Assembly: GCA_042217555.1 (NCBI GenBank)
Contig: JBDGSL010000078.1
Span: 1 to 19,883, forward strand
Direction: 5' to 3'
DNA from: Candidatus Nanohalobium sp.
Lineage (GTDB): Archaea; Nanohalarchaeota; Nanosalinia; Nanosalinales; Nanosalinaceae
DNA: 19,883 nucleotides
This document shows, one piece after another, positions 1,417-18,495 of this stretch. The translations under genes were made by a program, and so were the position numbers. The stretch's first letter is position 1, and every line of letters starts with the position of its first letter. A model generated the notes under the pieces. It had not been told where the DNA came from. It searched no databases and saw only the letters and a list, made by a program, of their open reading frames with translations.

Positions 1417-1569
1417 TGCGGCGTCCGGGATTTGAACCCGGGTCACCGGCTGACTTCTGGATAAACCCGGTGGAGAAAAGTGCGTTCGCCGAGGGCGAAT
1501 GCTCTCTTGCGTGTCCACCTGAGCGTAACCAGTGGAAGGCCGGGGTCTTAGCCACTGGACCAACGCCGC
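1417..1569 (-). tRNA. tRNA-Gly(TCC) with an 81-nt intron (1452-1532) at position 37/38
   Basis: The reverse complement folds with acceptor GCGGCGT/ACGCCGC plus discriminator A, anticodon stem CCGGC/GCCGG, loop CT-TCC-A|intron|A and T arm CCGGG-TTCAAAT-CCCGG. There is a canonical bulge-helix-bulge (CTTC/GAAG helix, CAC and TCA bulges) and no encoded CCA. Confidence 0.95.
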
Positions 1570-2976: not shown

Positions 2977-3630
2977 ATGAAGGAAGTACAGCCAGGGATA
3001 TACAGGGAGGGCGACAACCTGTACACGGTCAACGCAGTTGAAGGAAAAGATGTCTACGGCGAACAGCTTTACAGCCGTGAAGACAGAGAGTTCCGGGCCT
3101 GGCACGGCAACAGATCGAAAGCCGCAGCCGCAGCACTCAACGGAGTAGACCTGGAGATAGAAAGAGACGACGAAGTACTGTACCTTGGAGCCTCAACAGG
3201 TACAACAGTCTCCCACTTCTCAGATATACTTGAAGACGGCTTTATATACGCAGTAGAGTACTCTGAAACTGTTATACGTAGCCTGGTGAACCTGGCAGAG
3301 CAGAGAGAGAACATAGCGCCGATACTTGGAGATGCAAGAAACCCGGAAGAGTACTCTGACCTGGTGAGAAAAACCGACATCGTGTTCCAGGACATATCCC
3401 AGAGCGATCAGCCAGAAATATTCACAAAAAACGCAGAGAAATACCTGAAAAAAGATGGGACAGGCCTTCTAGCAGTAAAAGCACACTCCATATCCACATC
3501 AAAAGATGAGGAACAAGTTTTCACCGAAGTAAAACATAAACTGAAGGAAAAATTCGATATAAAAGCTGAGAAACGGCTTGAACCCTACGAGAAAAACCAT
3601 CTCTTCCTCAAACTCAAGTGGTCAAGTTGA
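2977..3630 (+). CDS. flpA: Fibrillarin-like rRNA/tRNA 2'-O-methyltransferase
   Basis: Motifs [46 protein letters not shown] and LEPYEKNH. Confidence 0.96.
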
Positions 3631-4010
3631 AAGTCATGGCCCAGGGAACATTCGACATCCTCCACCCGGGACACCTTCACTACCTGGAGAACTCGGCCAA
3701 ACTCGGAGACCGGCTCACAGTAGTGATCTCACGGGACGCCCGCACAGAGAAAGAACTCCACTTCAACGAAGACGAAAGAAAAAAAATGGTGGAAGCACTG
3801 CAGGTCGTCGACAGAGCCGTACTCGGATCAAAAAAAGACATATTCACAACAGTACAGAAGATCGACCCCGAACTGATAACACTCGGATACGACCAGGGAT
3901 ACGACACAGAAAAAGTAAAGCAAAAAGCCGAAAAAGCAACAGGCCACAAAATCCAGGTAAAAAGAATCTCCAACCTGAAAAACTACTCCTCAAGCAATAT
4001 AAAAAACTAG
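3618..4010 (+). CDS. ribL: FAD synthase (archaeal cytidylyltransferase-like nucleotidyltransferase)
   Basis: [14 protein letters not shown] (HxGH) motif plus [13 protein letters not shown] and ITLGYDQ; overlaps the flpA stop; exact start uncertain. Confidence 0.85.
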
Positions 4011-5170: not shown

Positions 5171-7963
5171 ATGAAACACACCAAAACCCTCCTCACCACA
5201 GCACTCATACTCCTCACAGCAACCACAACAGCAGAACTCAACTTCAAAACACAAAACCCCATCAACTTCCACAGCAACATAAACATGCAAAACAACCAGA
5301 TACAAAACCTATCCACCCCCGTAAACTCAAACGACGCTGTTAGACTCCAAGACCTTGGAAACTACGTCAACAGAAGTGGGGATACTATGAATGGTTACCT
5401 CAACATGAACGGTAATAACATAACTGCTGTTGACAATCTTAAAACAGGAGGTCAGAACATTACAGTCCGAGACACAAAAAACAATCAAGATATCATGCGT
5501 TTAAAACAAGGAGGAAACATAGAAATACCGAACGGAAACCTTGACATGGGTGGAAATTTGGTAAGCAATACGGGAAAGGTGGGAGGTGCAAAGGCGAGAA
5601 ATTGGGGATTTGAGAGCCCCAGTGGTAAGGAGAAGATTGATTCAGGAATACCTGGGTGGAGAGTGGAAGAAGTATCTGGTACCGATATACAGAAGAGAGG
5701 GGGTAATACGGAATCTTTCTCATTTGGATTTGAATCCTGTTGTAACCCTGTGGGGGACGGTGCAGGTGGTGGAAGTACAGGCCAATGGGATGTCTACAAG
5801 ACCTTTTCAGGCAATTTTGGAGACAGATGGTTTAACGCATCTGTTAAAGCCTATGTTAATGCTGATGTTGACGGCGTTGGCAGCTGTAGTTCTGGAAATG
5901 TCTGGGTAGGTGAGAACGGTGCTAGGATAACTCTTAGAGCCTATGATAGCTCCGGCAACCAAATAGGTATAAAGAGAGGTCATTGGACGGCATGGCATGC
6001 CAAGAATACTGCTGGCATAAGTGGTGATGGAGATAAAACAACGAGTGATGTGTCTAAGGTAATTAAAATATACAATCGTTATCATCTTCCTTCAGGTACA
6101 AAAAAGGTCAGAGTAAACTTGAATGCTGGAGAAAATAGCAACTCCTGTACTTCTGAAACCAGTGAAGCAATTGGAAATGCCGCTACTTACTTCGATAGTT
6201 TTGAATTGGACACCAAAGCCGACTGGACAGATTACGGCGGTAGAGAATCTGTATTTGTCGGAGGCGGCAACCTCGACATGAACGGCAACAACATCGCACT
6301 CAACGGAGGCTACCTCTCAAATGATGGTGACAACGAAGGAATAACAATAGACAACTCAGGGAACGTACAGGTACCAAGTGGAAATATTGGCCTTTCGGGT
6401 GATTTTCTTTTCCATAGGAGCACCAATTTTACCCTCCAGCAAAGTGGTGGAGATGACAAACTGGTCTTCTGGGATGAATATCGCAGTCGGCGGCTTATGT
6501 CTCTTGACTATGATGAAAGTGGCCCGCTTAAGCTCACCAATACGGCTCTCGACATGAACGGCAACAACATCAACAACGTCAACTCGATAGAACTCAACTC
6601 TCAGGGAGAAATCCAGACCGACGGAACGAACGCGATAACGATTGATTCAGGGCAGAACGTAGCGATTCCGAACGGCAACTTGGATGTTTCCAGTCCTTCC
6701 AACTCGGATCATACCGTGGATGTCGGCGGTTCAATGGGTGTGGAAGGAAACCTGGATTTAAACTCTAACGCGATGAAGAATGTTGACTGGTCGAACAGTG
6801 ATAATCCTAACACAGACAATCAGGGTTTGACTAATGTCTTAGGTAATGATAATACGGCTGGAAATGACATAGTTATGGATGGCTCCAATAATCTGTATTT
6901 CGGAGATTCAGGGGATTCTGGCCGAATTCAGGCCCGGCTCCACAATAATCAGAGGTTTTTAATGGCTCCATACGACGATGGTTCTGAACAGTGGGGGAGA
7001 GAGTTTGGATATTCTAGTGGGACAAATCAATGGTACGTGGAAAATGGTCTAGATATCAAAACAGGTGGACTAGACATGAACAGCAACGATATCAAGAATA
7101 TTGATGAGATAAGTGAGCCGCGTAGGGCGGCTTCGATGAACTCGGTATTCCATGACTCTTTCGAGGATAACAGTCTTGGAAACTGGGCACGTGTGGACAC
7201 CTCTACAGGAGGCTCGGCAACAGGTATCGGGACCGGAGGACAGGTCGGTGCGAACCCGATCGGCGACTATCTCATCAACATGGAGGGTTTGGATATGATC
7301 GAGTATCAGGCCAATATCGATCTTTCCAGCCTCGATGATCCGGTTTTAAGCTTTTACTGGGCGTGCAGGAGCTGTGACAACGAGGGAGGGTATTTGGAAA
7401 TATCTCAGGATGGCGGGTCTTCCTGGACGCAGATCGAAACTTTCAGGCCTCAGACAAACTCCGGGGGTGGTAACTCCAACTTCCAGTACGAGGAGGTCGA
7501 CCTATCCGCTTACGGCGGCCAGGGAGATATCAGGATCAGGTTTAAGGGAAGCCCGGGAAGCGGCGACGACTTTGCGGTTGACAACATCAATATACACGGT
7601 GAGAGAGGTCTCTTGACTAAGAGTTCGAAGACTCGTGTTTCGCAGAGGAGCACACTAGTAGCCGCAAGCAGAATCGACGCCGGCGGCAACCATATAACAA
7701 ATGTTGCAGACCCGAATTCCGCCCAGGACGCAGCCACTATGTCTTGGGTCAATAATAATGATGCCTCGGGCGCTTCCCTCGGGACGAAGGGTTGGACGTC
7801 GTGGTCGGTCGGGTCCCTGTCGGCGAATGCGACGTGTTCGGCCGGGGAGGTAGTGGTGGGGGTGCGTGTGGGTGGCAGGTCGTTGGGGGGGAGTTGCGCG
7901 GATGAGAGTCCGACGCAGGCGTCTTCGTGGTGTGTAAGTGTGCAGTGTGCCCCTCTACAGTAG
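5171..7963 (+). CDS. Secreted modular fibre-like adhesin (930 aa) with lectin/MAM-like passenger domains and a Cys-rich C-terminal tip
   Basis: Sec signal; neck-like motifs IQNLSTPVNSNDA and ITNVADPNSAQDAA; YVNRSGDTMNGYLNM; repeated (G)NLDMNGNNI linkers; beta-sandwich inserts ending YFDSFEL and FAVDNINI. Confidence 0.85.
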   Translation: MKHTKTLLTTALILLTATTTAELNFKTQNPINFHSNINMQNNQIQNLSTPVNSNDAVRLQDLGNYVNRSGDTMNGYLNMNGNNITAVDNLKTGGQNITVRDTKNNQDIMRLKQGGNIEIPNGNLDMGGNLVSNTGKVGGAKARNWGFESPSGKEKIDSGIPGWRVEEVSGTDIQKRGGNTESFSFGFESCCNPVGDGAGGGSTGQWDVYKTFSGNFGDRWFNASVKAYVNADVDGVGSCSSGNVWVGENGARITLRAYDSSGNQIGIKRGHWTAWHAKNTAGISGDGDKTTSDVSKVIKIYNRYHLPSGTKKVRVNLNAGENSNSCTSETSEAIGNAATYFDSFELDTKADWTDYGGRESVFVGGGNLDMNGNNIALNGGYLSNDGDNEGITIDNSGNVQVPSGNIGLSGDFLFHRSTNFTLQQSGGDDKLVFWDEYRSRRLMSLDYDESGPLKLTNTALDMNGNNINNVNSIELNSQGEIQTDGTNAITIDSGQNVAIPNGNLDVSSPSNSDHTVDVGGSMGVEGNLDLNSNAMKNVDWSNSDNPNTDNQGLTNVLGNDNTAGNDIVMDGSNNLYFGDSGDSGRIQARLHNNQRFLMAPYDDGSEQWGREFGYSSGTNQWYVENGLDIKTGGLDMNSNDIKNIDEISEPRRAASMNSVFHDSFEDNSLGNWARVDTSTGGSATGIGTGGQVGANPIGDYLINMEGLDMIEYQANIDLSSLDDPVLSFYWACRSCDNEGGYLEISQDGGSSWTQIETFRPQTNSGGGNSNFQYEEVDLSAYGGQGDIRIRFKGSPGSGDDFAVDNINIHGERGLLTKSSKTRVSQRSTLVAASRIDAGGNHITNVADPNSAQDAATMSWVNNNDASGASLGTKGWTSWSVGSLSANATCSAGEVVVGVRVGGRSLGGSCADESPTQASSWCVSVQCAPLQ

Positions 7964-8064
7964 CTATTCCCCTTTCCGGTTGGTTGTGGGGCGTGGGGCG
8001 ACCCTGTTCAGGGGAGATGGGTTCCCGCCCCTTTGCCGGGATGGGGAACGCGTAGCGTAGGGTT

Positions 8065-8619
8065 TTGAACAGGGCGTGGTACTGGGATGGATCGACCAAT
8101 ATTGATTTGGTGGATGGCGGCAACGTTGAAATCCCGAACGGCAACCTTGACATGAACGGCAACAACATCCAACTCAACGGCGGCTACCTCAGCAACGACG
8201 GCAGCAACGAAGGAATAACAGTGGACAACTCAGGGAACGTACAGGTACCAAGCGGAAAACTGGGTGTGGGAACTTCACCGTCAGCATCTTTGCACATAGC
8301 AGGTCAGGATAATTCACCGGTATTGTTAATCGAGCCAGATTCTATGACGGGTGAAACGTCCAGGATAAGGTTTTCTGATCCTGATGGGGGAACGGGGAAT
8401 ATGAATATAGAATATGCTGATGATGGTGCGGCCAGTCTCTCCGTCACAGGAGGCGGTTTGGATGTTTCCAGTCCTTCCAACTCGGATCATACTGTGGATG
8501 TCGGCGGTTCAATGGGTGTGGAAGGAAACCTGGATATGAACGGGAACAATATTAATTCGGCTGGGTCAGTAACTGTTCAAAATAGTTTCCAGCTTCCGGT
8601 GGGGACAGATGCTTACTGA
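8065..8619 (+). pseudogene. Orphan C-terminal adhesin segment (alternative or displaced tail) ending FQLPVGTDAY
   Basis: No signal peptide and only a TTG start. 8139-8258 resembles 6265-6384, and 8458-8535 matches 6680-6757 at 77/78 nt. Confidence 0.7.
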
Positions 8620-8682
8620 TTTCTTGAGGGATTGGTCGCTAAGGTTTGCCGGGAGGAGGGAATCAGTGTTCTGCGTGGAAGA

Positions 8683-8720
8683 ATTACCGGATTTTTAATG
8701 TTGCGGTTGTTGTGAAGTAG
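8683..8720 (+). repeat. Boundary repeat copy 1 (~38 bp)
   Basis: attaccggatttttaatgttgcggttgttgtgaagtag. Confidence 0.85.
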
Positions 8721-8758
8721 TCCAAAGTGATTTAATTATGCAGGTTTAAAACGGGTTT

Positions 8759-9034
8759 ATGTCTGAGGTTGATGTGCCTGATGATTCTTTGGAGGTTGTG
8801 AGGCAGAGTGTTTCCAAAGAGAAGAGGATTGTTCAGAGGAAAATTGAGAGATATGAGAAGAGGGTTGAGGAGTTTGAGGAAGAGTTTGACATGGATTCAG
8901 AGGAGTTTGTGGAGAAGTTTGAGTCCGGTGAGCTTGGTGATGATCAGGAATGGTTTGAGTGGAAAGCGAATATTCAGGCTTTGAAACGTTTGAAGGAGAG
9001 GAAGCAGAAGCTTGAGAAGGCAGGTATTGAATGA
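8759..9034 (+). CDS. Putative antitoxin partner of the DUF6516-type gene
   Basis: FEEEFDMDSEEFVEKFESGELGDDQEWFEW motif typical of the small partners of this family; ATGA overlap with the next gene. Confidence 0.75.
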   Translation: MSEVDVPDDSLEVVRQSVSKEKRIVQRKIERYEKRVEEFEEEFDMDSEEFVEKFESGELGDDQEWFEWKANIQALKRLKERKQKLEKAGIE

Positions 9035-9390
9035 TCTCCAGTATCTGGCGGAAACTTGACTCCCTAGGCTATATAGTTGAGGAGCAGGATATCAGTTTTG
9101 AGAGGATTGATGAGGAAACTTTCCGCATAGATGGAAAGATAGTGTTCGCTAACGGTTACTCTCTGGAGTTCATGGAGTACAGCTCTCCGGAAAACCATGA
9201 TTATAGGTTCCATTTAATGGACGAATCGGATAACCTGGTGAAGAGATGGGATAACGCACCGCATCACGAAGAACTGGAGAACTTCCCGTTCCATGTCCAC
9301 GTTTCTGAAGATAAAATTGAGCCTGATAAGCAAAGAGAACTTGTTTCAGTCCTTGACGAGATTGAGAAGATAATTGTAGAGAACCTGTGA
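9031..9390 (+). CDS. DUF6516 (TumE-like) putative toxin
   Basis: YRFHLMD...RWDNAPHHEELENFPFHVH signature. Confidence 0.75.
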   Translation: MISSIWRKLDSLGYIVEEQDISFERIDEETFRIDGKIVFANGYSLEFMEYSSPENHDYRFHLMDESDNLVKRWDNAPHHEELENFPFHVHVSEDKIEPDKQRELVSVLDEIEKIIVENL

Positions 9391-9401
9391 ACTGGCCGAA
9401 A

Positions 9402-9438
9402 ATTAACGTATCTAAAATTTGCAGTTGGTGTGAAATGG
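9402..9438 (+). repeat. Boundary repeat copy 2
   Basis: attaacgtatctaaaatttgcagttggtgtgaaatgg; abuts the vapC stop at 9439. Confidence 0.75.
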
Positions 9439-9848
9439 TTACAGGTTTTCTTTTCTGAGTTCTTCAGGTCTGTGAACCGTTAGTTCTTCTATCTTGTTGA
9501 AGTGGGAGATGTTTTTCGTGACTATTTCTAGGTCTTCGGCAAGTATTATTGAGGCTATGAGCAGGTCCATGTCATCGATCATTTGGCCTTTCTCTTCAAG
9601 TGCTGCTCTTTTTCTCCAAATTTTTCGGAGCTTTTGGAGGTTGTCTGAAGCACCTGTAGGTGTTGTTTCAGTTCTTCTATGTCTTCTCTATGTTCTTCTG
9701 TTTTAGTGGATTTCTCAGCTCCGTGGTAAAGTTCCGCAAGTGTTATAGAGGTTATGGCTATTCCTTCTTCAAAACTTTGGATAAATTCTTCTGTGTCTTT
9801 GTCTCCGCGTAGAAAGTTGATGATGACATCTGTATCGAAGACTTTCAT
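9439..9848 (-). pseudogene. vapC: VapC PIN-domain toxin, frameshifted by a 1-nt loss in an A-run (9609-9613)
   Basis: N-part MKVFDTDVII...ITLAELYHG; the C-part lies in another frame as LEEKGQMIDDMDLLIASIILAEDLEIVTKNISHFNKI...ENL*; adding one A restores a 136-aa PIN protein. Confidence 0.85.
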
Positions 9849-10051
9849 CGGTTAAATCGCCGGGATTTGCCCTCTCTTTTTTCGTAAATTTCCTTTTTCA
9901 TCTCTTCGAGGCTTTCTCCCTCCTTTGTCTCGTAGTCAGACCAGGCTCCGGCTAGTTTTTCGAGTGATTCCTTTGAGGCAACTTCAGATCGTATCTTCTT
10001 TAGTTCATTCTCTATTCTATCAAGTCTAGAGTTTATACTGGCAGTAACCAT
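9845..10051 (-). CDS. VapB-like antitoxin
   Basis: 68 aa with LEKLAGAWSD motif; ATGA overlap with vapC. Confidence 0.75.
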   Translation of the reverse strand: MVTASINSRLDRIENELKKIRSEVASKESLEKLAGAWSDYETKEGESLEEMKKEIYEKREGKSRRFNR

Positions 10052-10179
10052 GTCTAAGTTTGGGTCAGCGAAATATTAAAATCTGGTGGTTAGGAAGTTA
10101 TCAAATAAGGATTGCTTTTTGCAGGTGGGAGAGAATTTTGGCACGGCGGTAGCAGTTCCCGAGAGCGATATCAGTTTTG

Positions 10180-10320
10180 ATGAGTACAGGGATTGTCCTT
10201 GAAAGGTTTGAAGTGCCGGGGAACGTGAATGAGCAGACGGCTGAAAAGTACAGGGAGCTGTTGGAGGAGGCTGAAAACAGGGATTACCGGATAGTTTATG
10301 TCGCGGTTGGTGTGAGGTAG
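10180..10320 (+). pseudogene. 3' remnant of an unknown gene, ending in boundary repeat copy 3 (10283-10320)
   Basis: Reads ...PGNVNEQTAEKYRELLEEAENRDYRIVYVAVGVR*; homologous to 16669-16773. Confidence 0.7.
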
Positions 10321-10383
10321 CCAGAAGCGGTCGGAAGTTTTTTATGGAAAAGAATTTTATCCTTCAGGTACTGAATTCTGTCT

Positions 10384-10704
10384 ATGAGTAACCGAAAAAC
10401 TAAACACCGCAAAGCCTTCGAAGAATTCGCCGAGAAAGCTCAGGAAGATTTGGGCGATTCTTTGAAGAAACTGGTGTTGTACGGCAGTGTGGCCCGTGGA
10501 GAAGAGTCTGAGGGGAGTGATGTGGATGTGTTCGCCGTGGTTGAAGAAGGTCTTGAAGACGAGCTTTACAGTTTGGCGGCAAAGGCAGGGAGGAAACACG
10601 AGGTGCATTTAGCCGTTATAGTTAGGAACCCTGAGGAGTACGAGTTGGTTCGGGACTCGTACTTTACGCGGGAGGTGATGGAGAGTGGCGAAGCAGTCAT
10701 CTAA
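10384..10704 (+). CDS. MNT (minimal nucleotidyltransferase) antitoxin 1
   Basis: LYGSVARGE....SDVDV (GSx10DxD) motif. Confidence 0.92.
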   Translation: MSNRKTKHRKAFEEFAEKAQEDLGDSLKKLVLYGSVARGEESEGSDVDVFAVVEEGLEDELYSLAAKAGRKHEVHLAVIVRNPEEYELVRDSYFTREVMESGEAVI

Positions 10705-11080
10705 TCATTTGGAGATTGCAGAGGAAATGTTGTCCGATGCCCGGTTCAACCTGGAAAACGATCGCTCTCTGAGAACAGTAGAGGACAGAGCGTTCTACGC
10801 CATGTACCACGCCGTCCTGGAAGTCCTGGAGGAACTGGATTACAATCCAAGCTCCCGGTCCAGCACTATTGCCTTGTTCGGCAGAGAAGTGGTCCATGAA
10901 AGAAAACTGGTTGATGCGGAGTACCACAGTATGCTATCGAAGTACCAGGCCAAGAGGCAGGAAGCAGACTACGAAAAAGTATTTTTAGACGACAGAGAAG
11001 ACGCCAGACAGTTCCTTGAAGACGCGGAAGAATTCGTAAAAACCATCAAAAAACTATTACCGATTGAGGAAAACCGATGA
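10685..11080 (+). CDS. HEPN-domain protein 1 (COG1895/UPF0332-like)
   Basis: DRAFYAMYHA and KRQEADY motifs; coupled to MNT1. Confidence 0.88.
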   Translation: MAKQSSNHLEIAEEMLSDARFNLENDRSLRTVEDRAFYAMYHAVLEVLEELDYNPSSRSSTIALFGREVVHERKLVDAEYHSMLSKYQAKRQEADYEKVFLDDREDARQFLEDAEEFVKTIKKLLPIEENR

Positions 11081-11391
11081 CATCCAGGCATCGTGAAGCT
11101 TTTGAAGTGTTTGCAGAAAAAGCCGAGGAAGAACTAGGTGATTCTCTGAAAAAGCTGGTTTTGTATGGTAGTGTTGCCCGTGGAGAAGAGTCTGAGAAAA
11201 GTGATGTCGATGTCTTTGCTGTTGTTAAATCTGAGGAGGAGAAACAGGTTTTGAGGGACTTAGCATTCGAAACCGGTTTAGAATACGAGGTATCTTTCTC
11301 TCCTATAGTAAAAACTGAGGAAGAGTATTTAGAGGTTAAAGATACGGTCTACGGCCGCGAAGTAAGGTCTACAGGTGAAATCCATGTCTGA
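11077..11391 (+). CDS. MNT antitoxin 2
   Basis: LYGSVARGEESEKSDVDVF; ATGA overlap with HEPN1. Confidence 0.92.
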   Translation: MTSRHREAFEVFAEKAEEELGDSLKKLVLYGSVARGEESEKSDVDVFAVVKSEEEKQVLRDLAFETGLEYEVSFSPIVKTEEEYLEVKDTVYGREVRSTGEIHV

Positions 11392-11761
11392 AGCTGAAAA
11401 GTATCTGGAAATGGCGGAAGACTCTTTTGCCGATCTCCAACTACTGGAGGAAGCATCGGACAGAGCGTACTGGAACTCGATGTACTACTCAGCTTTCTAC
11501 GCAGCCAGAGCAGCACTTCTAACCCTCGGATTCGAGCCCAAAACTCACAGCGGAACCGACACACTCGTAGCAAAAATACTGTTCAAAGACGAAGAATACA
11601 TAGGTAGGGAAGACGCCAAACACTACTCCCAGCTGAAAACGATCAGAGAAGAAAAAGACTACAACCCGGAAGCAAATGTAAACTTCGAAAAAGAAGAAAT
11701 GAAACAGAAAACCCAGAAACTCTTACAGAAAATGAAAAACATAGTAGAGGAAAACCAATGA
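11384..11761 (+). CDS. HEPN-domain protein 2
   Basis: YYSAFYAARAAL, KTHSG and REEKDY motifs; AGGTGA RBS before ATG 11384. Confidence 0.9.
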   Translation: MSEAEKYLEMAEDSFADLQLLEEASDRAYWNSMYYSAFYAARAALLTLGFEPKTHSGTDTLVAKILFKDEEYIGREDAKHYSQLKTIREEKDYNPEANVNFEKEEMKQKTQKLLQKMKNIVEENQ

Positions 11762-12072
11762 GTTCCCAACACCGAGAAGCCTTCGAAGAATTCGCCGAGA
11801 AAGCTCAGGAAGAATTAGGCGATTCTCTGAAGAAACTGGTTCTGTACGGCAGTGTTGCGAAAGGCCAGGAATCGGAAGAGAGTGATGTTGATGTCTTTGC
11901 TGTGGTCGAGTCTCAGGAGCAGAAGGAACGGCTGGAGGATCTGGCTTTTGACGTAAGTGTTGAGCACGGTGTTTTCATCGTACCGGTTATCAAGACTGTG
12001 GAAGAATTTGAAGAGTCGAAAGATTCTCTCTTCAGCCGTGAGGTTATGGAGACAGGTGATATCCGTGTCTGA
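11758..12072 (+). CDS. MNT antitoxin 3
   Basis: LYGSVAKGQESEESDVDVF. Confidence 0.92.
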   Translation: MSSQHREAFEEFAEKAQEELGDSLKKLVLYGSVAKGQESEESDVDVFAVVESQEQKERLEDLAFDVSVEHGVFIVPVIKTVEEFEESKDSLFSREVMETGDIRV

Positions 12073-12457
12073 GTCTCCAGAAGACTTCATGGAGCTAAGC
12101 GATCAAGCATTGCAGGATTTAGAGATAGCAACGGACGGCGGAGCATCTTTAAGAAGCCGTTACAACCGGCTTTACTACGCTGTTTTCTACGCCGCAAAGG
12201 CAGCCTTGCTCTCCGAAGGAATTGAAGCCAAGACCCATAGGGGAACCGCTAACCAGGTCTACCAGGAATTCTACGACAAAAGAGGTCTTCTGGAAAAAGA
12301 GGAAGCTATCGTAATTCAGAAAGTCCAGAAAAGACGGGATATGGCCGACTACGAAGTAAAAGCCAGTTTCACAGAGGAAGACTTTGAACAACTGCTGGAA
12401 AAATCCAGAGAGTTCATCAGAAGAATGAAGAAAATAACCCGCGGTGAGACAAAGTGA
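12065..12457 (+). CDS. HEPN-domain protein 3
   Basis: RLYYAVFYAAKAAL, KTHRG and RDMADY motifs; AGGTGA RBS before GTG 12065. Confidence 0.9.
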   Translation: MSESPEDFMELSDQALQDLEIATDGGASLRSRYNRLYYAVFYAAKAALLSEGIEAKTHRGTANQVYQEFYDKRGLLEKEEAIVIQKVQKRRDMADYEVKASFTEEDFEQLLEKSREFIRRMKKITRGETK

Positions 12458-12768
12458 CCTCAAAACACCGCAAAGCCTTCGAAGAATTCGCAGAAAAAGC
12501 CAAGGAAGAGTTAGGCGACTCCTTGAAGAAGCTGGTTCTGTACGGCAGTGTTGCCCGGGGTGAAGAGACGGAGGAGAGCGATGTTGATATTTTTGCTGTG
12601 GTTGAATCACGGAGCCAGAAAAGAAATTTGGAGCAGTTAGCAGCCGAGATAGGAGTAGAGTACGGCGTGCTGTTTTCGGCGATTGTGAAGACAGAGAAAG
12701 ATTACAAAGAAATGGAGGACAGCTCCTTCAGTCAGGAAGTCAGAGATACAGGTGAGGTCTATGTCTGA
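12454..12768 (+). CDS. MNT antitoxin 4
   Basis: LYGSVARGEETEESDVDIF; GTGA overlap with HEPN3. Confidence 0.92.
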   Translation: MTSKHRKAFEEFAEKAKEELGDSLKKLVLYGSVARGEETEESDVDIFAVVESRSQKRNLEQLAAEIGVEYGVLFSAIVKTEKDYKEMEDSSFSQEVRDTGEVYV

Positions 12769-13150
12769 AGCGGAGCAATATATAGAGTTATGTGACAAAG
12801 CAGTCAAAGACCTTGAGAAAGGCGAGAAAGCAGGGCAAAGCCTGAGAGCAAGATATAACAGGCTTTACTACGCATGCTTTTACGCCGCTAAAGCTGCTCT
12901 ACTGTCGAAGGATATTGAGGTACGGAGCCACGCAGGTATAGCAGATAAAGTCTTCACAGAACTCTACAGAGAACAAAAACTAGTTGAAAAACAGACCGCA
13001 GCCGTCTTAAGCCGTGTACAGACAAAACGAGACCAGTCCGACTACGAAATAGATATCAACGAAACAGAAGAAGACTACCAGGAAATCAAAGAAAAAGCCG
13101 AAAAATTCATACAACAAATGAGACAAATAGTAGAGGAAGAAACTAAATGA
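12761..13150 (+). CDS. HEPN-domain protein 4
   Basis: RLYYACFYAAKAAL, RSHAG and RDQSDY motifs; AGGTGA RBS before ATG 12761. Confidence 0.9.
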   Translation: MSEAEQYIELCDKAVKDLEKGEKAGQSLRARYNRLYYACFYAAKAALLSKDIEVRSHAGIADKVFTELYREQKLVEKQTAAVLSRVQTKRDQSDYEIDINETEEDYQEIKEKAEKFIQQMRQIVEEETK

Positions 13151-15306
13151 ACAAAAACCATTCCCGCTCCACCCGGTCCAGAACCAAGATCACCGCCCTC
13201 ACAATACTACTCCTCACAGCCATAACACTCGGAACAGCCTTAAGCTCCACCTCCAACACCGCAGCACCAGCCGGATCCGCATGGATCGAAGGCTCAAGCC
13301 TCCACTGGGCAAACGGGACAACGGAGTACTTCTTCAATCCGGTTCCTAGCAATGACTCGGCTGTAGGCACCTACCATCTGGACTCAGGGACAGGCCAGAC
13401 CGCACTAGACCTCTCAGTAAACAACAACGATGGAACACTGGGCAACTCCACCAGCAGCGAAACCAGCGACCCCTCCTGGACTAGCGGAAAGTTTGACGAT
13501 GCCTTGAGTTTTGACGGCAGTGATGACTATGTTGCTCTCCCTCAGTCCTATTCTTCATCAAACATAGGTAGTTTCTCGGTAACTGCCTGGGTTAACGTCC
13601 CTACTGATGGAGGAGGCTGGTCTATTGTGGACTTCGATAGGAGTGAATACTTTACAGCTACGGCAGGGATACCCAGCTCGAGCGCTGGCGGTGAAGGAGA
13701 CTATGTTGGTTTCCACACTACGGATTCAGGTGGTACAATCTCTGATATGTGGAGTAGCTCAACCATCAGGGACGGTTCCTGGCATCACGTAGCATGGGTG
13801 TTTGATGGTTCTACGAAGTACATTTACATTGACGGTAGTCAGGACAACACTCAGTCAGTATCAGGCGTGGGAACAGGTACTACAAGATACGGTTTCCTGG
13901 GTGACGGTTCCGAAGCTTCAAGTTTCGACGGCTCCCGGAACAATAACTACTTCCAGGGAGATATGGACGAGGTCCGTATCTATAACCGTGCTCTATCTCA
14001 GGACGAGATTCAGCGACTGTATGAGGGTGCCGGGTCCAAGACGGGTGGGCCGACCGGTGCGTGGTGGGTCGAAGGCTCGGCGATGCACTGGATCGACCAG
14101 AACGGTTACGAGAGGGCTTATACTGGTTCTACTGTGAGGAAAACTGTTTATTCTGAGGGTTTTGATGATGGGACGGCTAATAACTGGAATATTCAGACTG
14201 GTGACACTGACTCTGGTGTGACTACCAGCCCTGTCTGTTCAGGAGATTCTCCTGCGAATTGTCCTACACCTATTGACTCTCATATTTTGCAGGTGGATTC
14301 TAGTGATATCCATACTTCTCCTGCTATTGATCTTTCGTCTTACTCCAGCGCGACTTTGAACTTTGCGGTGGCGAGCGAGTCCATGGATGATTCAAGTGAG
14401 GATACACAGGTAGATGTTTCAAGTGATGGTGGAAGCACTTGGACAACTCTGAAAACAGTACATAACGTTCCTACTTCCGGGTCTGCTCCTCTAAGCTTCT
14501 CAATAGATATATCCTCTTACACAACCTCCAACTTCAAACTCAGGATAGACAACGTCGGCGGAAACGGCGGAGGCGACCACGGCTTCCTCGACGAAGTAAA
14601 AATCACCGTTCCAAGCAGTCCTTCAGCAGCTTCACCAGGAAACGTCTGGATTGAGAACGGCGTGCTTCACTATATTGATGCGAACGGGAACGAGAGGAGA
14701 ACGAGCGGTACTGTGTTTATGGAAGACTTTGATTCTCAAGCTGATGGAGATTTTCCGGATGGGTGGACTAAGGATACACCTTGGGATTCTTCTAATCCAG
14801 TGTTTGAAGTTGATACAGCTCATGCAGTAGGTTCTGCCTCTTTATATACTACTGAAGATAGTCAGGGGGGAAGTACTTATACAGTGCGTGCTTTCAAGAA
14901 TCTCGATAGTATCTATACTCCATCTGAGATACATGCGGATATTCGTCTTGAAGGACATCGAGATCCTGGTAGCACCAATTTAGGATTCAATAATGTGTCT
15001 TATTCTGACAGTAGTAGTGTTGATATTAGTGGTAGTGAGGGAGGCTTGCGGATTATTATTAGTCCTGGAGGGGATTCAAGCAATGATATTCAGCTTACAG
15101 GCATGTTATCAACTTATAGCATTAATACCGGTCAGTGGTATGACGTAAGCTGGAGGGATATAGACTGGAGCTCTCAGACTATGGATGTATATATTGAAGG
15201 AGTTCAACAGGTAAATGATGCATCTTTCTCGTTGTCAGAGATTAAATCTGTATACCATGTCAATGATGATAAGTATCTGAGAATAGATGAGATAGTATTT
15301 AGATAA
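13147..15306 (+). CDS. Secreted LamG/concanavalin A-like multi-lectin surface protein (719 aa)
   Basis: Signal peptide; LamG motifs ALSFDGSDDYV, FSVTAWV, WHHVAWVFDG and FQGDMDEVRIYNRALS; MAM-like domain SPAIDLSSY...SSDGGSTW; third ConA-like domain at the C-terminus. Confidence 0.9.
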   Translation: MNKNHSRSTRSRTKITALTILLLTAITLGTALSSTSNTAAPAGSAWIEGSSLHWANGTTEYFFNPVPSNDSAVGTYHLDSGTGQTALDLSVNNNDGTLGNSTSSETSDPSWTSGKFDDALSFDGSDDYVALPQSYSSSNIGSFSVTAWVNVPTDGGGWSIVDFDRSEYFTATAGIPSSSAGGEGDYVGFHTTDSGGTISDMWSSSTIRDGSWHHVAWVFDGSTKYIYIDGSQDNTQSVSGVGTGTTRYGFLGDGSEASSFDGSRNNNYFQGDMDEVRIYNRALSQDEIQRLYEGAGSKTGGPTGAWWVEGSAMHWIDQNGYERAYTGSTVRKTVYSEGFDDGTANNWNIQTGDTDSGVTTSPVCSGDSPANCPTPIDSHILQVDSSDIHTSPAIDLSSYSSATLNFAVASESMDDSSEDTQVDVSSDGGSTWTTLKTVHNVPTSGSAPLSFSIDISSYTTSNFKLRIDNVGGNGGGDHGFLDEVKITVPSSPSAASPGNVWIENGVLHYIDANGNERRTSGTVFMEDFDSQADGDFPDGWTKDTPWDSSNPVFEVDTAHAVGSASLYTTEDSQGGSTYTVRAFKNLDSIYTPSEIHADIRLEGHRDPGSTNLGFNNVSYSDSSSVDISGSEGGLRIIISPGGDSSNDIQLTGMLSTYSINTGQWYDVSWRDIDWSSQTMDVYIEGVQQVNDASFSLSEIKSVYHVNDDKYLRIDEIVFR

Positions 15307-15337
15307 CCTTGAAAGTAATGACAGAAGGTATAGGAAG

Positions 15338-15640
15338 TTATGTGTTTTCTGATTGATTGGGGTATAGGCCTGTGTCTTCTATTTTGCAGTTGCTGTCAAC
15401 TACTGAATCCCTAATTTCTGAGTTTTTGATCTCTGAGTTTGGGAAGACTATGGTGTCTTCAAGCTTTGAGTTTTTGATTTCTGCGCCTTCCATTATGTGG
15501 ATGTTGTTTCCGATCTTGCAGTGTGTGGTGTTTCCGTTGTTGATGGTGTTTCCGTTGTTGATGGTGTTTTCGGTGACTGCGGCGAGTGCGTCGAGGTATC
15601 CTTGCCGTGTGCCGACGTCGAACCAGTGTCCATCGAAGTT
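15338..15640 (-). pseudogene. C-terminal fragment of a sugar-phosphate nucleotidyltransferase (NDP-sugar synthase)
   Basis: My translation, not in the ORF track because it has no start: NFDGHWFDVGTRQGYLDALAAV...IGNNIHIMEGAEIKNSKLEDTIVFPNSEIKNSEIRDSVVDSNCKIE...* (WxDVG motif plus hexapeptide beta-helix). Contains an 18-bp tandem duplication at 15526-15561. Confidence 0.75.
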
Positions 15641-15647
15641 GTGAAGT

Positions 15648-15751
15648 CTCTGATTCTTCCTACAGTTCCGGTGGTATCGGTGTTGGCCATGATAATCACA
15701 ACGGTGTTTCCGTCGACGATGTACTTTGATGAGGTGAAGGTTGTGGGGTGA
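15648..15751 (+). pseudogene. Frameshifted C-terminal remnant of a lectin-like beta-sandwich domain
   Basis: SDSSYSSGGIGVGHDNHNG followed, in another frame, by STMYFDEVKVVG*; resembles the domain endings FLDEVKI and RIDEIVF of the 719-aa protein. Confidence 0.45.
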
Positions 15752-15809
15752 GTTGGCGGGTTGGAGTGGTTTATCAGGAGAGGGTTTTTTACTTGTTGGA
15801 GATGGGAGG

Positions 15810-15846
15810 ATTACTGCTTTCTTTAGTTGTGGTTGGTGTGAAGTAA
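15810..15846 (+). repeat. Boundary repeat copy 4
   Basis: attactgctttctttagttgtggttggtgtgaagtaa. Confidence 0.75.
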
Positions 15847-15868
15847 GTGTTCGGTAGCCATTATCTTT

Positions 15869-16078
15869 ATGAGTTTGAGTTTACCAGGTTTGGGTATGGA
15901 AGATAACGAACTTGGCTCTCCGGAGGAGTTTGTTGATGAGGTTAAGGAGAAGTGGAGTGACAAGGAGAGGGATTTACGTGAGAAAGTTGAGGAAACTATT
16001 GAGCGTAGAGCGAGGAAGAGGGCTGCTGAGATACTTGATAGGGAATCCAGTGAGCTTAGAGAAGGTTCAACTGCTTAG
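15869..16078 (+). CDS. Small acidic helical protein, possibly an antitoxin
   Basis: 69-aa ORF directly after repeat copy 4; convergent with, and overlapping the end of, a PIN gene. Confidence 0.5.
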   Translation: MSLSLPGLGMEDNELGSPEEFVDEVKEKWSDKERDLREKVEETIERRARKRAAEILDRESSELREGSTA

Positions 16079-16549
16079 TTCTTCCGGAGATTTTATCTCT
16101 ATTTCCGGTAGTTCTTGATTCTTCAGGAACTCGTTGAGCTCTTTCTGCCGATTCAAGAGATGTTTTTTGTCGAATGTGATCAGGTAGTCTATTTTCATTC
16201 CACTGGTGTAAAGAACCAGGTTCAGGTCTGATTCCTTCATATTTTCCAGTTGGTTCATTCCTTCTTCGATTATTTTTGATACAAGTTTGCCGGTTTTCGA
16301 CTCGATCGAGTTTTCGAGTTCTCTTACGTCTATAAGTTCATTTGAGTATCTGAACTGGAATTCAGCTATCTCTGTCGCCAGATCGCTGTGTTTCCATTCG
16401 TGGATTTGTTGGAATAGGAGTATTGGTATGTGAAGTTCAATTTCTCCGCTCTCAATTTTCTCTAATACTTCTTCGGCATGCTCTTTTCTGTCGTCTTGCT
16501 TATCCCAGAGAGCTATCGTGAAAACGTCTATATCCACGACTGCTTCCAT
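16067..16549 (-). CDS. PIN-domain protein
   Basis: N-terminal VVDIDVF, then ESDLNLV and DYLITFDKKHLL motifs. Confidence 0.8.
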   Translation of the reverse strand: MEAVVDIDVFTIALWDKQDDRKEHAEEVLEKIESGEIELHIPILLFQQIHEWKHSDLATEIAEFQFRYSNELIDVRELENSIESKTGKLVSKIIEEGMNQLENMKESDLNLVLYTSGMKIDYLITFDKKHLLNRQKELNEFLKNQELPEIEIKSPEELSS

Positions 16550-16668
16550 GCAAAAAATTGCGGTTTCATATTTAATTAGGTTTGACTGGAATTCCGGGTA
16601 AGAAGATTTAAAGAGAAAAACAGTGGTTTGAGAACAGTTACCGGGCGATTGCTTTTACCGGTCAGGTA

Positions 16669-16773
16669 TCGGAGAACGTGAATGAGCAGACCGCAGAGAA
16701 GTACAGAGAATTGCTTGAGAATGCAGAGAGTAGGGATTACCGGATCTACAATGTTGCGGTTGGTGTGAAGTAA
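16669..16773 (+). pseudogene. Second copy of the gene-3'-end remnant, ending in boundary repeat copy 5 (16736-16773)
   Basis: SENVNEQTAEKYRELLENAESRDYRIYNVAVGVK*; homologous to 10216-10320. Confidence 0.7.
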
Positions 16774-16812
16774 AGGGGTTAGTGATTTAATCTGCAGGTT
16801 TAAGACAGGTTT

Positions 16813-17016
16813 ATGTCTGGGGTTGTTGATTCGGATTTTGATTGGATGGTTGAAGGAGTTAGGGTGAAGGATCGTTCCCGTATAAAGAGGGCTATGGAGA
16901 AGCAGGAGGAGATAAGAGCTGAGTCTGGCGAGGGAGGTTTAAGCAGTGAGATTAGGAAGTGGCGGGATAAGAGAGGTGAAAGGTGTTGTGGTGTTTTGGT
17001 TTTTGTGAGGAGTTGA
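16813..17016 (+). CDS. Orphan VapB-like antitoxin, probably degenerate
   Basis: RAMEKQEEIR...SSEIRKWRDKR resembles archaeal antitoxin C-termini; no toxin follows; upstream region nearly identical to that of 8759. Confidence 0.5.
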   Translation: MSGVVDSDFDWMVEGVRVKDRSRIKRAMEKQEEIRAESGEGGLSSEIRKWRDKRGERCCGVLVFVRS

Positions 17017-17058
17017 TCAGGGAGTTGTTGAAAACGTCTGAGAGTTATAATTGTTTGA

Positions 17059-17098
17059 ACTATGTTAGTTGAGACTATGTTAGGTTAAACTATTTAAG
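17059..17098 (+). promoter_or_regulatory. Three direct repeats (ACTAT(G/T)T(T/A)AG, 15-bp period) overlapping a TATA-like box
   Basis: actatgttag at 17059, actatgttag at 17074 and actatttaag at 17089; TTTAAG lies about 25-29 nt before ATG 17122. Confidence 0.6.
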
Positions 17099-17121
17099 TT
17101 TGTAGGGGCCAAGTTAGGTGT

Positions 17122-18495
17122 ATGGAGGGTTTTGTTAATAGGCGTGATGAGTTGGATAGGCTTAATTCTCTGTTTGATTCCAGGGAGGCTGAGTTGGCTG
17201 TTGTCTACGGGAGAAGGAGGGTTGGCAAGACGGCTTTGGTGACTCAGGCGATTGAAGGTAGGGAGAATGCGGTCTACTATCAGGCGGTAGAAACTACGAA
17301 AAAAGATCAGATAGAAAGTTTCATGGCTACGGTTAAAGAGGAGTTTCCAGAGATAGAAGATTTGAGGAAGAGCTGGGAGCCGGTTTTGAAGTACTTGATA
17401 CAGGAAGAAGCGATAATTGTGCTTGATGAGTTCCCGTATCTTGTGGATTCGGATGAAAGTCTGCCATCTGTTTTGCAGAGGCTCTGGGATCATGAAACAG
17501 ATAACTCGGAGGCAAAACTGGTTCTCACAGGGTCTTCCATCGGAATGATGTATGATATCGCCTTGGAGGGTGGACCGCTTTACGGCAGGGTTTCACAGAA
17601 CCCGAACGGAGAGTTTTCAGTTGACCAGCTGCCTTTCAGCGCTGCGACAGAGTTTTTCCCCGGTTACAGTGATGAGGAAAAAGTACTGGCATTCGGAATT
17701 TTCGGTGGAACGCCGCACTACCTCAACGCGGTCGACTCAGAGAAAAGTATTGCGGAAAACGTCCAGGAAACTATTCTATCACAGGGCGGCGGACTACACG
17801 ATGAACCGGAGACGGTGCTGAGAATGGAGCTGGACGAGGTAAACCGGTACTTCGCCGCTTTGAAGTCTATGGCTAGAGGAAACCGATCCAGAAATGAGAT
17901 AGTAAACGACACCGGTATAGAACAGTCCAGCGCTGGATACTACCTTAATAGGCTTGAAAAACTGCATATAATACAGAGAGATCATCCTGTAACAGAAGAC
18001 CCGAGAAAATCCCGGAAGACTCGTTACAGGATAAGAGACCGGTTTTTCAAGTTCTGGTTCCGGTTTGTATACGGCCAGACCACGAGGTATGATCTCTACG
18101 GAGAGAACGCCTATAAAGACTTTATAGAGCCGGAGATAGCTGATTTCACGAGCGAAACCTTTGAGTATCTCTGTCAGGAAGCTTCAGTAAACCTTCACTC
18201 CGATCTCAAATTCAGGAAGATAGGGCGTTGGTGGAGGAAAGGCAGAGAAATAGATGTCATCGGACTAACTAACTCAGATAAGATTCTGGTTGGAGAAGCC
18301 AAGTTCACATCTTCTCCGCTTGGATACAACACGCTTTCAAAACTGGAGGGAGACGCAGCAAACCTGAACATTGACAAGGAAAAAAGATACGCACTTTTCT
18401 CAAGAAACGGGTTTAAAGAATCAGTGAAAGAAGCTGCTGGTGAAAGAGAGGATCTGTATCTCCATGATCTCGGGGATATAATCAGAAACTTGTAG
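17122..18495 (+). CDS. Archaeal ATPase (COG1672 type) with wHTH and DUF234 PD-(D/E)XK-like C-terminal domain
   Basis: Motifs FVNRRDEL, Walker A YGRRRVGKT, Walker B IVLDEFPY, GGTPHYL, DRFFKFWFRFV and WW...EIDV...GEAK. Confidence 0.92.
   Translation: MEGFVNRRDELDRLNSLFDSREAELAVVYGRRRVGKTALVTQAIEGRENAVYYQAVETTKKDQIESFMATVKEEFPEIEDLRKSWEPVLKYLIQEEAIIVLDEFPYLVDSDESLPSVLQRLWDHETDNSEAKLVLTGSSIGMMYDIALEGGPLYGRVSQNPNGEFSVDQLPFSAATEFFPGYSDEEKVLAFGIFGGTPHYLNAVDSEKSIAENVQETILSQGGGLHDEPETVLRMELDEVNRYFAALKSMARGNRSRNEIVNDTGIEQSSAGYYLNRLEKLHIIQRDHPVTEDPRKSRKTRYRIRDRFFKFWFRFVYGQTTRYDLYGENAYKDFIEPEIADFTSETFEYLCQEASVNLHSDLKFRKIGRWWRKGREIDVIGLTNSDKILVGEAKFTSSPLGYNTLSKLEGDAANLNIDKEKRYALFSRNGFKESVKEAAGEREDLYLHDLGDIIRNL

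Follow-up and report, generated by a model that had tools for sequence, protein, structure and literature searches.

Five copies of a 38-bp repeat separate toxin-antitoxin (TA)-like modules on a contig of the archaeon Candidatus Nanohalobium sp. The stretch analysed, called the window here, is 19,883 nucleotides long and is the entire contig C76 of genome G000 (1.31 Mb, 94% complete). A preliminary description read the repeat as a conserved, integron-type recombination or target site that is duplicated whenever a module is added. Here we present sequence evidence that it is instead the eroded 3' end of a gene for an adhesin-like surface protein.

At this locus and its relatives we observe gene-end remnants that come from diverged alleles, cargo genes tightly coupled to the stop codon of the remnant, reordering and loss of modules at the remnants, and several different genes serving as anchor. 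How does such an array come about without a dedicated recombination site? The explanation that we favour, with modest confidence, is a displacement array like those of rhs genes, assembled through the homologous recombination of the cell itself and maintained by toxin addiction.

Origin of the repeat

All five copies are present on the + strand and between modules, as originally placed. Their full extents are as follows.

Copy 1, 8679 to 8720, + strand: short remnant of an adhesin 3' end (…NYRIFNVAVVVK, then the stop codon)
Copy 2, 9396 to 9438, + strand: decayed, with a 1-nt deletion and the stop codon changed to TGG
Copy 3, 10110 to 10320, + strand: remnant of about 210 nt in which an internal deletion shifts the frame; its final 38 nt are the 38-bp core
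Copy 4, 15810 to 15846, + strand: decayed; good over the last ~21 nt alone
Copy 5, 16612 to 16773, + strand: remnant of the last ~105 codons of an adhesin, with a 50-codon internal deletion

A length of 38 bp thus describes the shared core only: copy 3 begins near 10110 and copy 5 near 16612, and their origin is coding. Four copies match a 20-nt core at three or fewer mismatches, where shuffled sequences give an expectation of 0.01 and none of 200 shuffles reaches four. With a 23-nt core and up to four mismatches, copies 1, 3, 4 and 5 are the only matches in the whole 1.31-Mb genome; copy 2 has five mismatches, as do two chance matches on other contigs. An nhmmer profile trained only on remnants from the related genomes G072 and G012 gives its top ranks in the genome to copies 3, 5, 1 and 2 (E 1e-31, 3e-21, 0.036 and 0.067, respectively) and misses copy 4 up to E 10. 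Copies 2 and 4 are decayed, and their identification rests on position: copy 2 is accepted because the same vapBC-like module is preceded by a remnant in genome G029, and copy 4 because G072 and G032 carry one before the same module (module B below). The core and profile searches place the motif at this locus and not scattered over the genome, ruling out a genome-wide promoter or terminator motif.

The reading frames of copies 3 and 5 both end in ELLE.AE.RDYRI..VAVGV[KR] followed by a stop codon. The 53-residue frame of copy 5 retrieved one longer protein, P0001, which has 1025 residues and YadA head repeats. BLASTP aligns copy 5 with the last 103 residues of P0001 at E 1e-20, across a 50-residue gap, and tblastn matches copy 3 to the same protein from about 10110, with a frameshift, at 64-77%. 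The 38-bp motif is thus the last ~12 codons and stop (…YNVAVGVK-stop) of an adhesin-like gene. The term adhesin-like reflects the protein's YadA and signal-peptide-like architecture, together with published descriptions of nanohaloarchaeal proteins of that architecture (PMC10266531, consulted in part); the words 'toxin' and 'HEPN' are absent from the main text of that paper.

No intact gene with this tail was found in G000 by tblastn of P0001, the genome being 94% complete. The tail domain itself is widespread and C-terminal (2057 representatives at E<=0.001). It matches the Peptidase_G2 / IMC chaperone family PF11962 weakly (E 0.0048, 16.8 bits, under the curated cut-off of 25), and no solved structural relative was found. 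Relatives of the domain also stand at gene ends in genomes G011 and G073 and at a gammaproteobacterial locus (L028), with no remnants in the stretches examined around them. On contig C33 of G032 (L048, reverse-complement 3382-3654) an inverted short open reading frame (ORF) ending …GSLTEGASL-stop matches P0001 up to the start of the tail domain.

Did these copies arise by local duplication and decay, or were they once parts of working genes? Over the last 33 codons of eight ungapped copies, the minimum numbers of changes at the three codon positions are 28/20/50 (p=0.0006). This test left out W_c1 and G72_r5, and c2, c4, r4 and G12_b were not in it. In the eight pairs computed, within-array pairs included, the proportion of synonymous differences (pS, 0.37-0.86) exceeds that of nonsynonymous differences (pN, 0.07-0.28). 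Divergence that is mainly synonymous implies that each remnant diverged while coding, so each was once a working allele. Neither decay of a local duplicate nor conservation of a site for protein binding would account for this. The excess of pS over pN within a single array likewise argues that the fragments of one array derive from different alleles, not from local duplication.

The remnants run from ~20 to ~320 nt, and internal deletions are frequent. The longest all begin about 275-320 nt before the stop; other starts vary. In 16 junctions tabulated by hand, forward cargo starts 32-63 nt after the stop codon. Reversed PIN genes adjoin the stop with no gap (2/2 tabulated), an arrangement that by eye holds in G029 as well. 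The last 21 nt are alike at 0.81 within arrays, 0.76-0.86 for four same-module pairs and 0.74 for others. With lengths this variable, synonymous divergence, and two unrelated gene ends in the same role elsewhere (see below), a dedicated recombination site is hard to sustain.

The absence of an attC-type palindrome, noted at the outset, is borne out: no copy folds better than its shuffles (z -0.03 to 1.21) in eight single-strand DNA folds of 71-nt windows, made without an attC covariance model and covering both strands for copies 1, 3 and 5 and the bottom strand for copies 2 and 4. Rfam has no match at the repeats, its matches elsewhere in the window being a tRNA and a weak HgcC hit. These results also bear on whether the repeat is a promoter, terminator or structured RNA element of TA operons, or else an assembly artefact. 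Short copies do survive, at a length of ~40 nt, directly ahead of TA promoters. Against a regulatory role, the repeat is in-frame coding sequence with synonymous divergence, it precedes forward and reversed cargo alike, and it shows neither a fold nor an Rfam match; against an artefact, adjacencies of the modules recur in independent genomes and Logan contigs span copies 2, 4 and 5. We consider either very improbable.

Modules, their order and other anchors

The genes of the window are as follows.

5171 to 7963, + strand: adhesin-like surface protein of 930 residues at the head of the locus, with a different C-terminus
8065 to 8619, + strand: orphan 3' fragment of another adhesin allele, ending ...FQLPVGTDAY-stop, directly 5' of copy 1
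8759 to 9390, + strand: module F, antitoxin-like gene (8759-9034) and TumE toxin-family gene (9031-9390)
9439 to 10051, - strand: module V, vapB-like gene (9845-10051) and frameshifted PIN gene (9439-9848)
10384 to 13150, + strand: module M, part 1, four tandem MNT (NTP_transf_2)-HEPN pairs
13147 to 15306, + strand: module M, part 2, LamG surface protein of 719 residues (PF13385, E 1.2e-26)
15338 to 15642, - strand: decayed fragments of a sugar-nucleotidyltransferase (LbH) gene (weak PF24894 match; tblastx to a homologue on contig C27)
15897 to 16549, both strands: module B, antitoxin-like gene (+ strand, 15897-16078) and convergent PIN-like gene (- strand, 16067-16549)
16813 to 17016, + strand: module A, antitoxin alone, its PIN partner lost here
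17122 to 18495, + strand: archaeal ATPase (ATPase_2 and DUF234), a flanking gene

Most of the module calls in the preliminary description hold, some in part. The DUF6516 pair corresponds to module F, whose toxin gene matches PF20126 (E 2.8e-21); DUF6516 we take to be TumE. Homologues of its antitoxin follow remnants in G072 and G029. Module V is vapBC-like (PF01850, E 5.7e-10), with the qualification that its vapC-like gene is frameshifted; it is 77% identical in nucleotides to the intact G029 module. Its stop abuts copy 2 without a gap, the module starting at 9439, and G029 is arranged alike. Module M comprises the four MNT-HEPN pairs and the adhesin as described, and also the decayed sugar-nucleotidyltransferase-like stretch at ~15340-15640; its LamG gene is present as a stub in G012 (93% nt) and as a homologue in G032. 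Module B is 86% identical to its G072 counterpart over 765 nt. The PIN call at 16067-16549 has no Pfam match and is supported by structure prediction (ESM Atlas PIN clusters, TM ~0.8). One pairing falls: the last antitoxin and the ATPase do not form a module, because in G072, G012 and G029 the antitoxin's partner is a PIN gene, lost here, and the ATPase is not beside module A in the other arrays.

The cargo types (PIN, TumE, MNT-HEPN and RelE/ParE-like pairs) all lie beyond the stop. With a toxin domain and a small neighbouring gene, they fit the layout of type II or MNT-HEPN TA systems, and several toxin genes are broken. The head adhesin shares a GGNLDMNGNNI-type repeat with P0001, and the fragment at 8065-8619 has 88-96% repeats in common with 6265-6384 and 6680-6763. 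Tandem pilin+adhesin units flank the array. The second adhesin gene at the window's end seems to continue on contig C54 (19879-19883 against G000:C54:1-5, a 5-nt overlap with the frame kept). At 1417-1569 (- strand), near nop5/fibrillarin, Rfam finds a tRNA with a long intron that ARAGORN missed (anticodon CCA, Trp, read by eye); two degenerate copies of its 3' end, at ~1357-1382 and ~1289-1310, look like old integration scars.

Seventy genomes of the phylum were searched at the protein level, with a match in 5/70, and at the DNA level with modules B and A, which matched in 7/70. On G072 contig C10 an intact gene (P0002, 7926-10022) is followed by six remnants spaced 650-960 nt apart, each with a two-gene module behind it that has PIN, RHH, TumE-like or RelE/ParE-like members. 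Further arrays occur in G029 (three remnants) and G012 (two). The orders are as follows, c1 to c5 being the copies of the window.

Window: c1-F-c2-V-c3-M-c4-B-c5-A
G072: gene-A-B-C-D-E-F-G
G029: E-A-F-V
G012: D-A-M(stub)
G032: M-B(truncated)

Two adjacencies of the window recur in independent genomes, F-V in G029 and M-c4-B in G032. The copy 4 junction is 86% alike in G032 over 315 nt, and in G072 remnant r1 precedes module B. Of the module pairs common to arrays, 8/12 stand in conflicting order, modules being identified by homology (for F, mainly a 117-nt stretch of the antitoxin); an explanation by losses from a single ancestral order is therefore insufficient. In G012 and G072 alike, the 5' part of the remnant downstream of module D stays with that module, and the 3' part goes with different cargo. 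Between genera the modules are 77-86% identical (the module A region 82.5% over 366 nt, G000 against G012) and pieces of adhesin 93-97%, compared with 71% (partial segments) and 66% for the core control nop5/fibrillarin. That modules are more alike than this control points to their exchange between genera. A G012 adhesin (L022:671-2062, - strand) has pieces in common with the window adhesins at 90-97%; its tail, we presume, recalls the C-type-lectin/FGE-sulfatase targets of diversity-generating retroelements.

Strain variation was read from Logan contigs of two runs of one study, possibly including the source sample. The joints are among those listed at similarity thresholds of 85 and 80; some of them could therefore stem from related organisms. 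One joint, 8623>10281, lacks modules F and V, and the six letters between its sides resemble the start of copy 1. Another, 10233>15826, lacks module M, one side being just 26 nt long. New downstream flanks begin directly behind the stop of copy 5. With arrays in four genomes and strain joints inside copies, the proposal that the repeats mark the edges of modules gained, lost and reordered stands. Three back-joints (16770>10341, 16721>8683 and 16667>10131) were considered as circles; the letters between their sides are unlike or unknown, and they are better read as other alleles. Within 5171-8619 strain contigs join or break at the GGNLDMNGNNI motif (e.g. 6577>8116 and 8255>6656), which suggests swapping of adhesin tips there.

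Unrelated gene ends occupy the same role elsewhere. On contig C29 of G002, a genome of the same genus (L050:5960-8382), a gene end …YYAVFRNLVFE-stop is intact once and repeated twice at 82-86%. Each copy follows a TA-like pair, one of them module C. The first pair still has a stub of the window's repeat core before it. An orphan remnant of the same gene end lies at G000:C54:7191-7517. On contig C12 of G000 (85600-89400, L057) a pilin-LamG gene ending …SGCKLTG-stop is followed by a DUF5615/DUF433 pair; of two upstream remnants, one precedes a vapBC-like pair and the other a stub, and the last 27-41 nt of the gene-end copies are 95-96% alike. The C12 array was the one convincing further array in a scan of 2111 ORF tails of G000, the other rows being judged by eye as paralogues or internal repeats and C12 alone opened. 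The three anchor tails have 10-16 of 40 nt in common. With three unrelated anchors in the same layout, the architecture is not bound to the 38-bp sequence. Direct repeats also lie around or before stand-alone TA modules in G032 (L063:6-42 and 659-695, 37 nt at 81%) and G013 (L065:337-386 and 1260-1306, 50 nt at 76%); the L063 repeat may be another duplicated gene end.

How the array may have grown

In the displacement account that we favour, a piece carrying an adhesin end and a TA-like pair would insert by homologous recombination, with the crossover in the gene end. The incoming piece could be a small circle, as in the model of Jackson et al., or a fragment anchored by one arm, as in that of Kirchberger et al. 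The older gene end and its cargo would be pushed aside, and the old end, now dead, would erode by deletion. Deletions reaching the TA promoter or the antitoxin would be lethal, and we propose that stubs of ~40 nt and their cargo persist for this reason. Cargo would thus be retained by putative toxin addiction, toxicity and neutralisation being presumed, and the remnants would supply the homology through which modules are later shuffled or pass between genera. G072:C10 and G002:C29 show the layout of displacement arrays, with an intact head gene followed by dissociated fragments of variable length. Other adhesin ends, first 8065-8619 and later 5171-7963, seem to have taken the place of the window's head gene.

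Several observations weigh against this account. The remnants are just 60-87% alike, low for efficient homologous recombination today. The G072 array has no age gradient, and the narrow zone in which the longest remnants start would also result from a fixed crossover. Several toxins are broken, so addiction cannot be permanent. The codon-position signal is weak for the G002 anchor, and on C12 the remnants come before the intact gene, not behind it. Loci elsewhere with the same TA families were checked, and the window's adhesin remnant is absent at 9/9 of them. Strain data add further difficulties. The copy number of MNT-HEPN pairs varies among co-occurring strains at breakpoints outside the repeats (10399>13182, 10512>11878 and 12457>10404), the first of which removes all four pairs, much like the G012 stub. 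The upstream adhesin is itself mosaic, with many joints and loose ends within 5171-7963. No circle or fresh insertion was seen in the contigs of the two runs.

Could the stubs instead be passive scars, left by deletion where whole units of surface gene plus TA pair had piled up in tandem? Deletions would have taken out the bodies of the older surface genes and halted ahead of the TA promoter. The flanking pilin+adhesin tandem units, the C12 remnants that precede an intact gene+TA unit, and the frequent deletions inside remnants would suit such a history. So would a TA cluster on G000 contig C1 that follows a pilin 5' stub and has the leader found downstream of copy 5. This cluster (~16700-18050, L058) has no adhesin remnant. 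Reordering would then reflect independent gains and losses. Yet no class-1 adhesin 5' stub lies between cargo and remnant in the three arrays inspected with the tails of P0001 and P0002 (G072 had no dedicated 5'-end search), and even the longest remnants cover at most ~320 nt of a gene of 2-3 kb. Moreover, the conflicting orders of modules that are 77-86% identical require either exchange at the remnants or repeated parallel events. We regard tandem accumulation as unlikely, though it deserves some weight.

A second possibility is that a tyrosine recombinase acting in trans places small TA circles always at the same point, ~300-320 nt ahead of the adhesin stop, as tandem genomic islands restore the 3' end of their target gene. 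The attL/attR pairs of islands have just the geometry that this requires, and the narrow zone of remnant starts fits it. PF00589 has 14 matches on other contigs of G000 (10 over the Pfam cut-off) and 11 in G012, so a recombinase could act in trans. The window itself has no PF00589 or PF00239 match, as first noted; no tyrosine or serine recombinase was found on the likely neighbouring contigs C6 and C54 or on the 114-kb G072 contig C10, and Pfam searches of the array modules found no integrase. None lies in the modules or array contigs of G000, G072 and G012; G029 and G002 were not searched. Nor is there an invariant core beyond codon constraint, and the three unrelated anchors argue against a single att site. 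Viral carriage finds no support either: the exact YNVAVGVK-stop pattern has 0 matches in viral sequences, an alignment search confirmed 0 of 37 candidates, and no viral contig with the motif was found. A pattern scan of metagenomes gave two matches, both unrelated by tblastn. We judge this scenario improbable.

A bolder form of the displacement account is a nanohaloarchaeal cassette system that needs no integrase: host-attachment genes would offer their ends as interchangeable landing pads, and small circles of gene end plus TA pair would be actively exchanged between genera. We offer it tentatively, as a possibility that is probably not the case. Were it true, any surface-gene end could grow into a reorderable defence array, and TA addiction would tie the turnover of defence genes to that of adhesins.

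Comparison with known systems

Tandem genomic islands integrate at the 3' ends of genes such as tRNA genes, ssrA, trmE and yicC. As there, the 3' end of a target gene is duplicated after each unit; here, the units are 0.65-1 kb (one is 5.5 kb), no integrase is found and remnant starts vary, the longest clustering about 275-320 nt before the stop. Like integrons and clusters of attC sites lacking integrases (CALINs), which in archaea hold TA-rich cassettes (PMC9668308, consulted in part), the arrays have small TA-rich units with their own promoters, reordered while the repeat orientation stays fixed. Unlike them, they have no attC hairpin and no intI, and the delimiter is dead coding sequence of variable length. 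Gain, loss and reordering of units at repeats, an integron trait, is seen at the locus.

Displacement arrays offer further parallels. For rhs arrays a two-step homologous recombination via a circle has been proposed (Jackson et al. 2009, PMC2935791), and recombination between the main gene and an orphan fragment has experimental support (Koskiniemi et al. 2014, PMC3967940). In the parts of these papers used here, an intact gene is followed, as in our arrays, by conserved fragments of variable length with cargo, and an integrase is absent. There, the repeated part is an internal core with a re-fusable toxin tip and an immunity gene; here, the extreme 3' end is repeated, a TA-like operon with its own promoter follows beyond the stop as cargo, and the array stores no new protein tip. 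A further difference is that the host is a DPANN archaeon and that three different surface genes serve as anchors. Effector-immunity arrays of the Vibrio cholerae type VI secretion system (T6SS) have been attributed to homology-facilitated illegitimate recombination followed by homologous exchange (Kirchberger et al. 2017, PMC5361080); in the sections of that paper drawn on here, additions displace the old gene and keep a gene behind, as in our arrays. What is kept in Vibrio is an immunity gene that protects against kin, whereas here whole TA-like pairs unrelated to the displaced gene are retained. The locus thus works like an rhs or T6SS displacement array and is not a member of either class, its cargo lying beyond the stop and being unrelated to the anchor. 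No description of such arrays in Nanohaloarchaeota turned up in literature search listings, subscription papers and supplements being outside them.

These findings would extend the displacement principle of rhs and T6SS loci to archaea, to cargo unrelated to its anchor and to at least three unrelated anchors. They also show that a repeat which looks like part of an integron in a genome scan can be a fossil gene end. Past adhesin alleles, including one whose intact gene G000 seems to have lost, are recorded in the remnants. For the genome-reduced DPANN symbionts, the arrays represent a candidate integrase-free route by which TA or defence modules may be gained and shuffled, a route linked to hypervariable adhesins that are likely determinants of host attachment.

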